Notes: a model not told the origin generated them from the sequence alone. 32,000 nt of DNA from Acaryochloris marina MBIC11017 (GCF_000018105.1 NC_009925.1:2610001-2642000); one strand, 5' to 3'. Positions 25,022-30,195 are shown, numbered from the stretch's first letter. Translations and numbers: made by a program.

Positions 25022-26014
25022 TTATGGAGTTGTGAGGCTCAGGCTCCAGCGGTGACATGTCGTCATCAAAATCAGCTTAATTAAATGTGGATAGGTCAGT
25101 TTTTGGGCTTGGGCGATTTGGGCAAGCGATCGCAAAGGATGTAACGTCGCATCGGCATTCACATCCACCAAATAGGCTTGCCCCCGGCCTAACCGAAAAT
25201 CGAAGGTTGCATAATCCAAAGGCTGCAGCAGATTCATCAACTTTAAAGCTGCACTCCGCAGAGGCTGTAAGTCTGAATCGGCTAGATCAACATTGACTTT
25301 CTGAAACCCTCCCTGACGCTTCGCTTGCAGATCCAACACTTGCTCCTGCAATGCCTGACCTGAAGTCGTCAAAGTTTCCACAGCTCCCAGCAAACTCGGT
25401 TCGAGATTGCCAACCACCCCAACCGTAATTTCTCGCCCCGCAATCAACGGTTCACAAAGTACTGCGGTTTGAAACTGGGATTGAAGTTGCTGCACCTGTT
25501 TCTGCAATACCGCTAACCCATCTTGGGTCTCGAACCTTTGAAGTCCTAAAGAATAACCTTCACAGGTGGGTTTCAGTAGCGATACGGGCCAAGGGGGTAA
25601 TTCTGTAATCGACTCTTCCAAACCAAAGCGACGCCAAGGTGGCGTGGCAATGCCGCACCATTCCAGAACCGGTTTGAGCCAGTCTTTATTTAAGGTCAAA
25701 CTTTTAGTGGCCGCATCGCCACCGGTATAGGGAATGCCTAGGTGTTCTAACAACGCAGGAGCGAGAGCCGTACGATTGCGGGATAGAGCACCTACGGATA
25801 AATTCCACACTAGATCAGGCAGGTCTTGCTGCTGCCAGCGGTGAAGCAAACTCTCCAGGGACCCAATAGCATCAACGGTATGGCCCAAATCCGTGAGGGC
25901 ATGGGTCACCGCAACCACTTCTTCCGGTTCGCGCCAATGGTAGTGGGTGTTGACTTGGGCCTCTGGTGCAGCCATCAGCTCCGCTTGGGAGTCAAACAGG
26001 AGGCCAATCTTCAT
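25022..26014 (-). CDS. ATP-grasp ligase, D-alanine--D-alanine ligase-like
   Basis: MKIGLLFD...EEVVAVTHALTDLGHTV... forms a Ddl-type N-terminal domain. LLEHLGIPYTGGDAATKSLTLNKDWLKPVLEWCGIATPPW forms the central ATP-grasp entry. The ATG at 26014 forms an ATGA overlap with the stop of the upstream gene. Confidence 0.7.
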   Translation of the reverse strand: MKIGLLFDSQAELMAAPEAQVNTHYHWREPEEVVAVTHALTDLGHTVDAIGSLESLLHRWQQQDLPDLVWNLSVGALSRNRTALAPALLEHLGIPYTGGDAATKSLTLNKDWLKPVLEWCGIATPPWRRFGLEESITELPPWPVSLLKPTCEGYSLGLQRFETQDGLAVLQKQVQQLQSQFQTAVLCEPLIAGREITVGVVGNLEPSLLGAVETLTTSGQALQEQVLDLQAKRQGGFQKVNVDLADSDLQPLRSAALKLMNLLQPLDYATFDFRLGRGQAYLVDVNADATLHPLRSLAQIAQAQKLTYPHLIKLILMTTCHRWSLSLTTP

Positions 26015-27150
26015 GGTGGGAGAGCATCCGGTAGCCACATCGTTTGCGGATCAATCGGCAAAAACAGAATGTCAGGATAATCATTGCCCCGCCGCCGCTG
26101 GTGCCAGCGACCGATCAGCTGTGGTTCAGGACCAGGGGTGAGTCCGACGAGTTCTAGCTTGCCGTGTTCATGGGTGAGGATATAGCGAAATCGCTTAACG
26201 GAGCCATTGCAGCGTTGGCGCAGTCCTTCGACTAGCTTGAGTCCCTCCAGAATTGGCAGTTGAAAATGGAGGGCATGTTTAACCGGGCGCGGATGGAAGA
26301 GATATTGAGGCAGGACGCTGAGGCGATGCAGTCGCTTAAATAAGGTTTCCATCACATCGACGGAACTGTTGACCCCTTGCATCAGGGGAATTTGAGCCGT
26401 AAGCAGACAGCCTGCGTTTCGCAAAACCGCTAGGGCCTGTTCTGCGGCTGGGGTGATTTCGCGAGGGTGATCGAAGTGGCACTGAAAAACAATTTGGAAT
26501 CGCTCTTGATACTGGGCCAACACTTGCAGCAACTCCGGATCAGAAGTAAAGCGGCTGGGAAGAAAGGCGGGTAGTTTGGTGCTGATCCGAATTTGCCAGA
26601 GATGGGGAATCTCGGCCAGGGCTGCCAGCAAATTGGCCAGACGGCGGGTACTGGACACCATTGGGTCGCCCCCGGACATCAGCACATTGTCAATTTCAGG
26701 ATGGGTTTGAATATATGCGATCGCACCCTGCAAATCCTCAATGGTTTCCTTGGTCATCACATCTTTGCTCATTAGGCGGCGACGAAAGCAATAGCGGCAA
26801 TGTCCCGCACAGGCTTGGGTGACAATCAAAACGGCGGTCTGTTCGTACTTATGCTGTAATCCAGGCACCACCGTCGATAAGGTTTCGCCACTGGTATCAA
26901 GAGAGCCGTGGTCATCCTGTTCATAGACCGACGGTAAGAGCAGCTGTCGCAGCGGATCGGTGGGGTCTTGCCAATCAATCAGTTGGGCATAGCCCTCCGG
27001 CACCATAAAGGGAAAATGGGTTTGGGCAGCAGTGATGCGATCGCAGTCTTCCTCTCCCAGAGGTAAGGTCGTTGCCGCCGTTTGCGAAAACTGTAGACTC
27101 GCTTTGAGTTCATCCCGCCAGGCCAGGCGCTTAGGCGTCGATAATGTCAT
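26011..27150 (-). CDS. KamA-family radical SAM aminomutase-like protein
   Basis: The CxxxCxxC cluster motif is VTQACAGHCRYCFRRR, followed by a SAM-binding-like LMSGGDP. The C-terminal LHFQLPILEGLKLVEGLR...HGK aligns by eye with lysine 2,3-aminomutase EHFRTPVSKGIEIIEGLRG...GGGGK. I chose the ATG at 27150; the start at 27192 is GTG. Confidence 0.8.
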   Translation of the reverse strand: MTLSTPKRLAWRDELKASLQFSQTAATTLPLGEEDCDRITAAQTHFPFMVPEGYAQLIDWQDPTDPLRQLLLPSVYEQDDHGSLDTSGETLSTVVPGLQHKYEQTAVLIVTQACAGHCRYCFRRRLMSKDVMTKETIEDLQGAIAYIQTHPEIDNVLMSGGDPMVSSTRRLANLLAALAEIPHLWQIRISTKLPAFLPSRFTSDPELLQVLAQYQERFQIVFQCHFDHPREITPAAEQALAVLRNAGCLLTAQIPLMQGVNSSVDVMETLFKRLHRLSVLPQYLFHPRPVKHALHFQLPILEGLKLVEGLRQRCNGSVKRFRYILTHEHGKLELVGLTPGPEPQLIGRWHQRRRGNDYPDILFLPIDPQTMWLPDALPP

Positions 27151-29107: not shown

Positions 29108-30195
29108 ATCCATCCACCCCAACAAGCCAAGGCCGCTTAACAGCGGCAGGTTTTATCGGTCTCTACCTCCACGGCATTGTGGTCGCCATGCCCGGTGCGT
29201 TCCTCCAGCAGTGGACGGATACCTTTGGCACAGGCGTCAATATTGGCCTGTTTTATACCCTCTTTTTAGTCAGCAGCCTAGGGGGATTAATCTGGGTCTC
29301 TCGCCAAAAATATCGCCATCCTGTCTTTGCCTTTGCCTTTGCTGCCATCGGCGTTGCCTTTATCGCCGCCGCTTGTGCCCCTCAGTTTGCCTGGATTGGG
29401 GGTGCTGCCCTTCTGCTGGGTTGGGGAGACGGCATTCTCAACTTTCACTGCAATAACTTGGTGGGAGAGCTACATCCTCGCCGTAAGATCACCGTCTTAA
29501 ATTGGGCGAATGCCACCTTTGGGGTTGGGGCTTTGAGTGCTCCTCTGATCAATGCAGCATTACTGTGGCGCTGGGCCTTTGGCTTAGTGGCAATGGGAGC
29601 CATTTTAGCCATTGCCCTGGCATGGCAAGCACCCCCAGTTCAAAATTTTCAGCCTCGCCATGATCGCGTTCAGTGGAGCATTGCTTGGCCATTTCTGTTG
29701 GTGATATTGATTTACGTCGGTTTGGAAAGTTCGATTGGCACCTGGAGTGGGTCTTACCTCAGCAGTCTGGGCTGGAGTAAGGGATGGCAAAATGCGTTGC
29801 TCTCAGCGTATTGGGGTGGTTTAACTCTGGGTCGCCTAACGTTGGGCATTTGGGTTGGCCCTCGCCCAGTACAACGGTTGCAGATATTGTTTTTGGTGGG
29901 TGTGGGTACCATTGCACTGGCGTTTTTGCCCAGTTTTGGCTTTCTGTTTCCAATTGCGGCAGTTCTCTATGGCCCAACTTTTGCAACTATCTTTGCTCTC
30001 CTGCAAGGGCGCTGTGGTCATGTGGCTTTAGGCTATATGTTCTACGCTGCCTATCTAGGCAAAACCCTATTCCCTACGGTCTTAGATCAAATCCCTGATC
30101 CTATTAACCTACGCTTTGGCTTTCTGAGTCTTGCTCTGCTCCTTTTGCTGAGCAGTCAGTTTTTATCCAGCACATCGGCACAAGAGCATGGTTAA
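29104..30195 (+). CDS. MFS-type transporter
   Basis: 363 aa with about 10-12 predicted TM helices. The TTG start overlaps the stop of the Ldh_2 gene, and the first ATG would delete TM1. Confidence 0.65.
   Translation: MNPSTPTSQGRLTAAGFIGLYLHGIVVAMPGAFLQQWTDTFGTGVNIGLFYTLFLVSSLGGLIWVSRQKYRHPVFAFAFAAIGVAFIAAACAPQFAWIGGAALLLGWGDGILNFHCNNLVGELHPRRKITVLNWANATFGVGALSAPLINAALLWRWAFGLVAMGAILAIALAWQAPPVQNFQPRHDRVQWSIAWPFLLVILIYVGLESSIGTWSGSYLSSLGWSKGWQNALLSAYWGGLTLGRLTLGIWVGPRPVQRLQILFLVGVGTIALAFLPSFGFLFPIAAVLYGPTFATIFALLQGRCGHVALGYMFYAAYLGKTLFPTVLDQIPDPINLRFGFLSLALLLLLSSQFLSSTSAQEHG

Follow-up and report, generated by a model that had tools for sequence, protein, structure and literature searches.

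A four-gene module in cyanobacteria that couples an aminomutase and a Ddl-like ligase to a VanW protein and a dehydrogenase, with a possible role in tailoring envelope precursors

VanW domains function as L,D-transpeptidases and depend on an essential cysteine residue (PMC11348318). The characterised VanW enzymes are all extracytoplasmic, possess a transmembrane helix or a signal peptide, and often carry a PG_binding_4 domain. Among the ATP-grasp enzymes, the D-aspartate ligase Aslfm of Enterococcus faecium adds a branch residue to UDP-MurNAc-pentapeptide, according to the passage of PMC4155827 that cites Bellais 2006.

We analysed a 32,000-nucleotide stretch of the Acaryochloris marina MBIC11017 genome, hereafter called the window. 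The initial annotation had described a divergent five-gene cluster in this stretch, and the gene calls, the Pfam matches and the sequence itself bear out its five reading frames, their positions, their families and their translational coupling. The features are as follows.

25022-26014, minus strand: ATP-grasp ligase, Ddl-like, 330 aa; Pfam Dala_Dala_lig_C, 51.7 bits
26011-27150, minus strand: KamA-family radical SAM/PLP 2,3-aminomutase, 379 aa; Pfam Radical_SAM; TIGR00238
27151-27257, no strand: divergent intergenic region, 107 bp between the two gene pairs
27258-28043, plus strand: stand-alone VanW-domain protein, 261 aa; Pfam VanW, 118.7 bits
28040-29107, plus strand: Ldh_2-family NAD(P)-dependent oxidoreductase, 355 aa; Pfam Ldh_2, 328.8 bits
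29104-30195, plus strand: MFS transporter, 363 aa; Pfam MFS_1, 58.6 bits

Three junctions can be read directly from the sequence. The KamA stop overlaps the ATG start of the ATP-grasp gene (330 aa according to the gene callers) in ATGA at 26011-26014, the vanW stop overlaps the ATG start of the Ldh_2 gene in ATGA at 28040-28043, and the Ldh_2 stop overlaps the MFS start in TTGA at 29104-29107. This gives the MFS gene a TTG start, which is less certain. The vanW gene also starts with TTG. This start is supported by a GGAG sequence 9-12 nt upstream, which is kept in the Acaryochloris MAGs L007 and L008, by the conservation of the N-terminal 70 residues among the homologues, and by the 261-residue cluster representative P0241. 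In the intergenic region, the TACAAT at 27208-27213 is conserved in the alignment with L007, L008 and the Acaryochloris locus L001, and a strain-specific 15-bp tandem duplication occupies 27215-27244. A consensus promoter scan of 27151-27257 found no match. The cluster adjoins IS elements and toxin-antitoxin genes, and its GC content is above that of the flanks.

How widely is this arrangement conserved? We compared 36 genome loci with a KamA identity of at least 53%. The KamA and ATP-grasp genes are adjacent in 35 of them, and a VanW-Ldh_2 pair lies no more than 10 kb away in 28. The four-gene set was also found on three further, non-cyanobacterial metagenome contigs. Counting the loci with both VanW and Ldh_2 near KamA, which are these 28 and the three contigs, the Ldh_2 gene is directly 3′ of the VanW gene in every case, and it has the same position at L087-L089 and L099. 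The module, in the order KamA to ATP-grasp and VanW to Ldh_2, is kept in some 35 cyanobacteria and in a few bacteria of other groups. In Mastigocoleus, both pairs are present on separate contigs (L017 and L099). The identity matrices of the four proteins correlate pairwise with r = 0.93-0.97, as a shared species phylogeny would also produce. Five loci (L009, L017, L023, L025 and L032) have no VanW-Ldh_2 pair within 10 kb, and there are stand-alone VanW orthologues, with 42-47% identity, that have no other module genes nearby. At L012, L017 and L040, inserted genes for a Rieske oxygenase and a TetR regulator separate KamA from ATP-grasp; these inserts look like secondary metabolism. The gene arrangement exceeds chance, and the conserved core consists of four genes in two translationally coupled pairs, which is uncharacterised; our literature search found no paper on this gene set. 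The proposed grouping therefore holds for four of the five genes, which are strongly co-conserved.

The fifth gene falls outside this set. In tblastn searches, the MFS gene was found only in the window, L001, L007 and L008, all of Acaryochloris, and its product has no NCBIfam or PDB match. It is thus a lineage-specific accessory, and the “exporter” cannot be counted as a member of the conserved cluster.

Next, we considered the genes around the module. In 26 cyanobacterial loci, spanning Nostocales and the Chroococcales/Synechococcus-CCY group, the ATP-grasp gene is followed directly by murJ in the same orientation, often with an overlap. The linked MurJ scores above its equivalog cutoff (TIGR01695, 405.5 versus 235.6) and is 53-56% identical to the MurJ proteins of Moorena, Coleofasciculus and Trichocoleus; the Moorena murJ locus has no module genes nearby. 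Judged by its sequence, the module-linked murJ is the housekeeping type and not a paralogue. In Tolypothrix bouteillei, the VanW-Ldh_2 pair is 3.3 kb from murJ, and KamA and ATP-grasp are absent from the 6 kb upstream of murJ. In Pseudanabaena, a stand-alone VanW gene is divergent to murG. An independent link to envelope genes is seen outside the cyanobacteria: at L041 (Myxococcota), L101, L102 and L103, the four genes are beside an O-antigen-ligase-like multi-TM/TPR membrane protein, whose match to Wzy_C is above the Pfam cutoff only at L101, weak at L103, and absent at L041 and L102. An SH3_3 protein is also present at L041 and L101, an M23 peptidase at L101, and PBP1C with an α2-macroglobulin at L103. 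The window itself has no murJ, and the translationally coupled MFS gene is found instead.

The aminomutase is a KamA-family member, as its TIGR00238 score of 216.1 bits exceeds the NCBIfam cutoff of 199.2. The scores for the equivalogs are all below their cutoffs: EpmB (219.9 versus 369.3), arginine aminomutase (190 versus 600), lysine 2,3-aminomutase (LAM; 174 versus 525) and glutamate 2,3-aminomutase (TIGR04368; 208 versus 650). The CAGHCRYC motif (C114, C118 and C121), R123 and K331 are invariant in 19-37 clade members. They align with C125/129/132, R134 (the α-carboxylate Arg) and K337 (the PLP Lys) of LAM, the last of these being mapped via the LAM-like sequence L050. In contrast, LAM Asp293 and Asp330 are replaced by Arg288 and Thr326, which are invariant in the clade, while EpmB in the same alignment retains Asp and Glu at both of these lysine ε-ammonium positions. 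Because of the Arg and Thr at the lysine-binding positions, it is very unlikely that the enzyme makes β-lysine. In a neighbour-joining tree, the window KamA is apart from EpmB and LAM, in its own clade of 37 sequences, which is part of a broader “Arg-type” group that is itself uncharacterised. A true EpmB gene, at L047, is flanked by efp and epmA, and neither gene is near any of the 40 clade loci examined. The alignment, the gene context and the tree thus agree in placing the homologue outside the EpmB clade; membership of that clade, with the other genes unrelated, would have gone against the initial annotation.

The partner ligase belongs to the Ddl-like ATP-grasp branch (Dala_Dala_lig_C, cutoff 24). 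The NCBIfam Ddl and Van ligase models score far under their cutoffs: the best is PRK01372 (91.4 versus 243), and the Van ligase models reach 20-40 against cutoffs of 550-775. When the family profile was compared with the PDB, Ddl/VanA structures were the only matches, at 87-33 bits. The Mg/ATP residues D272, D284 and N286, in a region that aligns with the RxDF...ExN of Ddl, are invariant, as are K148, E188 and R295. An invariant (T)HYHWRE motif is located where Ddl has its N-terminal GGxSxE-type motif. The positions that we take to be Arg255 and Ser281 in Ddl numbering are Thr and an invariant Arg, respectively. The ligase has thus kept the Mg/ATP residues of Ddl but not its D-Ala-site residues. 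Cyanobacteria also have a normal Ddl.

In the VanW protein, the VanW domain (PF04294) is well above its cutoff of 27, and no extra Pfam domain was detected. The NCBIfam vanW-gen model aligns over residues 31-198, and the VanW equivalog NF033128 scores 89.7 against a cutoff of 365. C125 (in GGGLCQ), H148 and D164 are invariant in 30 homologues, and from this motif we infer that they correspond to the published catalytic triad. The AF2 model has a pLDDT of 89.9 and no significant fold match in the PDB. The first 90 residues contain no transmembrane or signal-like segment in any of 120 homologues (maximum KD19, 1.49). The protein lacks an export signal, and VanW is therefore predicted to be cytoplasmic.

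The Ldh_2 protein has a full-length domain, covering 1-332 of 333 (Pfam cutoff, 38.8). None of the NCBIfam equivalogs pass, the best being sulfolactate dehydrogenase (192 versus 500). The nearest structures are 1V9N (184 bits) and 1VBI (158 bits), followed by ComC and AllD (135-139 bits), whereas DpkA (1WTJ/2CWH) scores 76.5 bits. The protein is thus far closer to the malate/sulfolactate/ureidoglycolate-type 2-oxo-acid dehydrogenases than to the Pip2C/Pyr2C imine reductases, one of the activities initially suggested for it.

What does the module do? The initial annotation had preferred a pathway that makes, ligates and exports a small molecule, with the remodelling of a cell-wall peptide as its alternative. 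The comparative data favour the alternative, because the conserved partner in cyanobacteria is a housekeeping-type murJ and because O-antigen-ligase-like, SH3, M23 and PBP genes accompany the module in other phyla. Considering that the usual neighbours are cell-wall export genes, we propose that the module most likely tailors a cell-wall building block: it would be a cytoplasmic system that equips the peptide of a peptidoglycan-type, lipid-linked envelope precursor with a non-canonical residue. We assign this reading a probability of roughly 40%.

In the proposed mechanism, if its chemistry follows that of the family, the aminomutase would depend on SAM, a [4Fe-4S] cluster and PLP, and would shift the amino group of a free L-amino acid from the α-position to C3. 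Its substrate would have an anionic or polar side chain and would not be lysine. The coupled ligase would then activate a carboxylate as the acyl-phosphate and join the β-amino acid to a partner. As with Ddl/VanA, this partner could be a D-Ala-type dipeptide unit destined for MurF; alternatively, as with the D-aspartate ligase Aslfm, it could be a branch on a nucleotide-linked stem peptide. The Ldh_2 enzyme may supply or process a 2-oxo- or 2-hydroxy-acid partner in a VanH-like role, which is the weakest step of the scheme. As VanW domains are known for L,D-transpeptidase chemistry, VanW would be a cytoplasmic Cys/His/Asp acyl-transferase that binds the stem peptide as a thio-acyl intermediate and swaps or trims its terminal residue inside the cell. 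The modified precursor would exit via MurJ in most cyanobacteria and would be handled by the O-antigen-ligase-like enzyme in the non-cyanobacterial versions, while in Acaryochloris the MFS transporter may have been recruited instead.

A more specific form of this proposal is more doubtful. The aminomutase would convert an acidic or DAP-like precursor into a β-amino acid, and the Ddl-like ligase and the cytoplasmic VanW-type transpeptidase would install it before MurJ flipping, as a new stem-peptide modification of peptidoglycan or another undecaprenyl-linked envelope polymer. If the proposal is true, cell-wall synthesis would gain its first radical-SAM aminomutase, and the VanW enzymes their first role inside the cell.

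Several observations are against the envelope reading. The VanW protein has no export signal, while the characterised VanW enzymes function outside the cytoplasm; the five loci without a nearby VanW-Ldh_2 pair, the stand-alone VanW orthologues and the TetR/Rieske inserts also count against it. The adjacency to murJ could be historical synteny, and the peptidoglycan of cyanobacteria is not known to us to carry any β-amino-acid or depsipeptide modification. Moreover, the coupled MFS gene and the absence of murJ in the window fit a soluble product better.

Such a product is the main rival, and corresponds to the pathway originally preferred: a soluble pseudo-dipeptide or depsipeptide (for instance a compatible solute, a metallophore or a signal) containing a β-amino acid made and ligated by KamA and ATP-grasp, tailored by Ldh_2 and VanW, and exported. 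The translational coupling of MFS to Ldh_2 in Acaryochloris agrees with this idea, as do the TetR and Rieske inserts at some loci, the patchy cyanobacterial distribution with outliers in other phyla, and the setting of the window's cluster beside IS elements and toxin-antitoxin genes at a raised GC content. The logic of PylB, PylC and PylD, the pyrrolysine pathway reportedly described by Gaston et al. in 2011, indicates that trios of this kind can make free amino-acid derivatives. However, the dedicated transporter exists only in Acaryochloris, the conserved neighbour elsewhere is a murJ of the housekeeping type, and the neighbours in other phyla are O-antigen-ligase-like, SH3_3, M23 and PBP genes. 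In addition, the surroundings contain neither an NRPS or PKS gene nor any other core biosynthetic gene, and peptidoglycan chemistry is the only setting in which VanW and Ddl-like enzymes are known. We therefore regard a soluble product as possible but doubtful.

The salvage of cell-wall peptides is improbable. In this case, a cytoplasmic VanW would act as an LdcA-like L,D-carboxypeptidase on recycled tetrapeptides, and the other enzymes would convert or re-ligate the freed amino acids. The predicted location of VanW, its stand-alone cyanobacterial orthologues (one of them beside murG) and the murJ linkage are consistent with recycling, but the radical-SAM aminomutase and the 2-oxo-acid dehydrogenase have no known place in it, the MFS protein matches no NCBIfam model, and the tight coupling of KamA and the ligase suggests synthesis rather than breakdown.

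Still less credible is a Van-type glycopeptide-resistance or D-Ala-D-X cassette, with Ldh_2 as VanH, the ATP-grasp enzyme as VanA and VanW as an accessory. A Ddl/VanA-like ligase, a VanW homologue that aligns with vanW-gen, and a 2-oxo-acid reductase do occur together here. Nevertheless, the Van ligase and VanW models all score far under their cutoffs, Ldh_2 is unrelated to VanH, and the D-Ala-site residues of Ddl are not conserved. The window contains no vanH, vanX, vanR or vanS, and neither a VanX/VanY peptidase nor VanRS accompanies the genes. This reading also leaves the KamA partner unexplained, and the bacteria that carry the module are Gram-negative.

The β-lysylation of EF-P or another protein, with the KamA homologue as EpmB, can be virtually dismissed: EpmB is the top NCBIfam model at 220 bits, but this is under the cutoff of 369, the Arg/Thr pair and the separate branch distinguish the protein from true EpmB, and with no efp or epmA at the 40 loci the EpmB identity is refuted as far as sequence and context show.

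Finally, we compared the module with the known systems. Like Ldt4 and Ldt5 of Clostridioides difficile (PMC11348318), the VanW protein has a VanW domain with, in this family, invariant Cys, His and Asp residues, and it shares with the reported VanW a fold without a PDB match. Unlike Ldt4 and Ldt5, it has no transmembrane helix, signal peptide or PG_binding_4 domain and is predicted to be cytoplasmic, and its gene in the module clade is always followed by the Ldh_2 gene. In common with LAM (C. subterminale KamA) and EpmB/YjeK, the aminomutase has the KamA-family fold (172 bits to PDB 2A5H), the radical-SAM motif CxxxCxxC, and the Arg and Lys residues for the α-carboxylate and PLP, respectively; it differs from them in lacking the LAM_C domain and the efp/epmA context and in having Arg288/Thr326. 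The oxidoreductase has the full-length Ldh_2 domain of the 2-oxo-acid dehydrogenases (P. horikoshii 1V9N, T. thermophilus 1VBI, ComC and AllD); unlike the named members, it reaches no equivalog cutoff, and it is distant from the DpkA-type imine reductases. The ligase resembles D-Ala-D-Ala ligase and VanA in its ATP-grasp C-terminal domain and Mg-binding D/D/N residues, and departs from them in its sub-cutoff scores, its HYHWRE motif and its altered D-Ala-site positions.

The PylB/PylC/PylD pathway has the same order of a radical-SAM amino-acid mutase, a Ddl-like ATP-grasp ligase and a dehydrogenase, although PylB belongs neither to the KamA family nor to the PLP enzymes, and PylD is outside Ldh_2. 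The module lacks pylS and pylT, and its VanW protein and envelope context have no Pyl counterpart. The Aslfm system likewise combines an ATP-grasp ligase with an enzyme for an unusual amino acid, a racemase there and an aminomutase here, which is a functional analogy only. By the same analogy, both Aslfm and the proposed module would act in the cytoplasm before flipping. Aslfm (Bellais 2006, cited in PMC4155827) is a precedent for an ATP-grasp enzyme that adds a residue to a peptidoglycan precursor, and in this respect lends support to the envelope reading.

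The genes for a KamA-type aminomutase, a Ddl-like ATP-grasp ligase, a VanW protein and an Ldh_2 oxidoreductase stay together across at least two phyla. Their enzyme families are well studied; the subfamilies to which the four proteins belong are uncharacterised. The initial annotation described these four genes and an MFS transporter gene in the window as a divergent five-gene cluster, and the six-frame ORF list and Pfam recovered all five ORFs at the coordinates it had assigned:

25022-26014, minus strand: ATP-grasp ligase (Pfam Dala_Dala_lig_C)
26011-27150, minus strand: radical-SAM protein, KamA (Pfam Radical_SAM)
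27258-28043, plus strand: VanW (Pfam VanW)
28040-29107, plus strand: Ldh_2 (Pfam Ldh_2)
29104-30195, plus strand: MFS transporter (Pfam MFS_1)

Direct reading of the sequence also bore out the overlapping stop and start codons: ATGA at 26011-26014, ATGA at 28040-28043 and TTGA at 29104-29107. The divergent spacer between KamA and vanW is 107 bp long. According to independent gene callers, KamA has 379 aa and the ATP-grasp ligase 330 aa. The long form of VanW (261 aa, TTG start) is favoured, because the N-terminus is conserved across homologues, the upstream GGAG is kept in related strains, and a cluster representative of 261 aa exists. The same cluster is present in two Acaryochloris MAG contigs, with protein identities of 92-98%. 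The spacer contains a 15-bp tandem duplication at 27215-27244 (ATGCCCTAACAAC + 2 nt), of which the related MAGs L007 and L008, both Acaryochloris, have just one copy; it is therefore a strain-specific indel, and we rejected this direct repeat as a conserved operator. A promoter and terminator scan was uninformative, with counts at or below the shuffled expectation, and neither the window nor any of six related loci yielded a riboswitch or other RNA hint to a metabolite. Calothrix parasitica has a c-di-AMP riboswitch (73 bits; L013, 3565-3728, minus strand) some 6 kb away from the module, where it precedes an unrelated gene.

How firmly are these genes linked? A profile scan of genomes seeded with the KamA-clade alignment yielded 80 loci, and tblastn and ORF clustering were restricted to the 36 loci in which KamA is at least 53% identical. 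KamA is adjacent to the ATP-grasp gene in all of these except a Phycisphaeraceae MAG (35/36), and the VanW-Ldh_2 pair, constant in order and mostly overlapping, lies no more than 10 kb away in 28 of the 36. The MFS gene is confined to Acaryochloris among these loci. Co-conservation thus holds for the four core genes and not for the transporter. Mastigocoleus carries KamA-(Rieske, TetR)-ATP-grasp-murJ on one contig (L017) and VanW-Ldh_2 on another (L099), and therefore the pairs can part while the genome keeps both. When the pairwise-identity matrices of the four proteins are compared over 28 loci, r is 0.93-0.97, which is weak evidence alone, because a shared species phylogeny would yield the same. 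Stand-alone VanW orthologues (42-47% identity) occur in Geitlerinema PCC 7407 and Pseudanabaena, where the other three genes are absent within 9 kb; the VanW family therefore extends beyond the module.

Individual loci vary in content. In some Rivulariaceae and Mastigocoleus, KamA and the ATP-grasp gene are separated by inserted genes for a TetR regulator and a Rieske/VanA_C-type oxygenase (L012, 10314-12363; also L017 and L040). In Scytonema tolypothrichoides (L045, 10001-11058), the KamA and ATP-grasp matches are only partial and degraded, and this copy looks like a decaying module. We rejected L050 as a member, since its KamA is LAM_C-type and belongs to a different cluster with GCS2 and C26 peptidase genes; a 508-aa ORF near that KamA has a weak ATP-grasp tblastn match (29% identity) and no Pfam domain.

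The strongest functional clue is the presence of two unrelated envelope-precursor gene sets beside one module in different phyla. First, in 26 cyanobacterial loci from the Nostocales (Calothrix, Rivularia, Scytonema) and the GC-rich Aphanothece/Synechococcus-CCY group, murJ is the next gene after that of the ATP-grasp ligase, shares its strand and often overlaps it. The module-linked MurJ scores 405 against the cutoff of 235 of the NCBI equivalog model, and is 53-56% identical to MurJ of cyanobacteria like Moorena, in which the murJ locus lacks any module gene; by these measures it is probably an ordinary flippase rather than a specialised paralogue. In Tolypothrix bouteillei, VanW-Ldh_2 is located 3.3 kb from murJ, and the 6 kb upstream of murJ contain neither KamA nor the ATP-grasp gene. 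Second, all four genes occur outside cyanobacteria in four loci, L041 (Myxococcota), L101 and L102 (GC 37-38%) and L103 (GC 59%), with identities of 36-53% to the window proteins. An O-antigen-ligase-like multi-TM/TPR membrane protein adjoins the module in all four; its Wzy_C match is above the Pfam cutoff only in L101, weak in L103 and absent in L041 and L102. Near the module are also an SH3_3 protein (L041 and L101), an M23 peptidase (L101) and PBP1C with α2-macroglobulin (L103).

Two further arrangements were observed. In L101 (7794-9038) and L102 (7823-8257), KamA is preceded by a SPASM-domain radical-SAM gene, which overlaps the KamA start in L101; this is a hint that the module of these two contigs includes a further step or acts on a peptide. 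In Pseudanabaena sp. Salubria-1 (L098, 7261-9792), a stand-alone cytoplasmic VanW is divergent to a murG-type glycosyltransferase (Glyco_transf_28 + Glyco_tran_28_C), and this pair is a second, independent tie of the VanW family to peptidoglycan synthesis.

The radical-SAM protein scores 216 bits in the NCBIfam KamA family (cutoff 199). In an alignment of lysine 2,3-aminomutase (LAM, PDB 2A5H) and 126 relatives, the radical-SAM cysteines, the α-carboxylate Arg (R123) and the PLP Lys (K331) are conserved. The positions of LAM Asp293 and Asp330, the residues that bind the lysine ε-ammonium group, are occupied by Arg288 and Thr326 in every clade member; bona fide EpmB proteins in the same alignment retain Asp and Glu there. 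This residue pattern points to a substrate that is an α-amino acid carrying a free carboxylate and, probably, an anionic or polar distal group; β-lysine is unlikely to be the product. Membership in the EF-P-modifying EpmB clade had been raised at the outset. In the neighbour-joining tree, the window KamA belongs to a clade of 37 members that has other KamA proteins of the Arg type (those with Arg at the LAM Asp293 position) as its sisters and lies apart from both EpmB and LAM. Score, residues, tree position and context led us to reject EF-P modification; efp and epmA flank one bona fide EpmB gene. Neither the window KamA nor its Arg-type relatives reached the cutoff of the lysine, arginine or glutamate aminomutase equivalogs.

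The Arg-type proteins form a large group (P0074-P0120; L100, 6908-8065, on Rhizobium plasmid pCB3171_2) matched by no NCBIfam equivalog, with sources in Coriobacteriia, Verrucomicrobia, Streptomyces (440-460 aa) and rhizobial plasmids. No recurring partner genes were found near its distant members (Coriobacteriia P0079, P0098 and P0082; the match H1 on a Rhizobium plasmid).

The ATP-grasp family profile matches only Ddl and VanA in the PDB. Its Mg/ATP residues are invariant, and an invariant HYHWRE stands where Ddl has its N-terminal substrate motif. At the positions of Ddl Arg255 and Ser281, the family has Thr and an invariant Arg, respectively. A search of a 1.84-billion-protein library returned 40 representative clusters at E ≤ 1e-30, about 20 of which look orthologous. 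The next-nearest relatives (P0372, P0384, P0387 and others) include many tandem-duplicated Ddl-like proteins of 650-720 aa without functional annotation, and these unnamed proteins gave no functional lead. Work from 2024 (PMC11348318) established VanW domains as L,D-transpeptidases in which a Cys is essential, and the invariant Cys125, His148 and Asp164 of the module VanW, judged by motif conservation, probably correspond to the published catalytic residues. None of 120 VanW homologues has a transmembrane or signal segment. The AF2 model of VanW is confident (pLDDT 89.9) and found no significant PDB match, only weak G5-like ones. As for Ldh_2, both imine reductase and 2-oxo-acid reductase types had been proposed, and the protein resembles the latter more closely: the nearest structures are malate/sulfolactate/ureidoglycolate-type dehydrogenases (184-135 bits), with the imine reductase DpkA at just 76 bits. 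No curated NCBIfam model gives any of the four proteins a name more specific than its family.

The surroundings of the window's copy are rich in other elements. Some 2 kb away from the cluster, two identical IS copies with a DDE_5 transposase form a perfect 1404-nt inverted repeat (18933-20336 and 21461-22864), and an IS630-like HTH_23 + DDE_3 pair (20374-21460) lies between them. Directly downstream of the ATP-grasp gene, a 571-aa protein (23123-24838, minus strand) shows a transthyretin-like match at its N-terminus and also matches lipoxygenase weakly; it is adjacent in L007 but not in L008, and therefore is probably outside the module. Past the MFS gene lie a PemK/MazF toxin with an overlapping upstream ORF (30225-30888, minus strand) and a second toxin-antitoxin pair, Phd/YefM with YoeB (31300-31825, plus strand). 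We rejected a plasmid origin (no close plasmid match; best KamA match about 40% identity) and an anti-phage defence role (PADLOC gave only a trivial radical-SAM match).

What does the module do? We rate it as either envelope-precursor tailoring or a small biosynthetic cluster, made up of enzymes that represent new subfamilies within known families. The best-supported reading, to which we give a probability of about 0.4, is that a peptidoglycan-type precursor peptide is tailored in the cytoplasm. Only family memberships, residue patterns and gene linkages were observed, and from these we infer all of the chemical steps. The aminomutase would make an unusual β-residue, which would then be joined on by the Ddl-like ligase, forming either a dipeptide unit or a branch; a precedent for branching is the D-aspartate ligase Aslfm, as cited in PMC4155827. 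VanW may perform thio-acyl exchange or trimming on the stem, and Ldh_2 may supply or process a 2-oxo/2-hydroxy-acid partner. The main rival, a soluble pseudopeptide that is exported, seems to us somewhat doubtful; it draws on the Acaryochloris MFS gene, the TetR and Rieske inserts at some loci, and the mobile-element-rich surroundings of the window's copy. Recycling and Van-type resistance, like EF-P modification, are minor or rejected alternatives.

If the tailoring of envelope precursors is correct, cyanobacteria and Myxococcota would have a new kind of peptidoglycan chemistry, KamA-type aminomutases would gain a new class of substrate, and VanW domains, which were not assigned a catalytic activity until 2024, would have a role inside the cell. 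If the product is soluble, the four enzymes form a compact pathway to a new β-amino-acid pseudopeptide. The module is small enough for heterologous expression and in-vitro reconstitution, and the question is therefore testable under either reading. Full-text literature searches that combined VanW, KamA or aminomutase and ATP-grasp with cyanobacteria, peptidoglycan and MurJ turned up no account of such a gene set, in agreement with the initial annotation, which knew of no characterised pathway containing it. The logic of a soluble product has a formal analogue in the PylB/PylC/PylD pathway.
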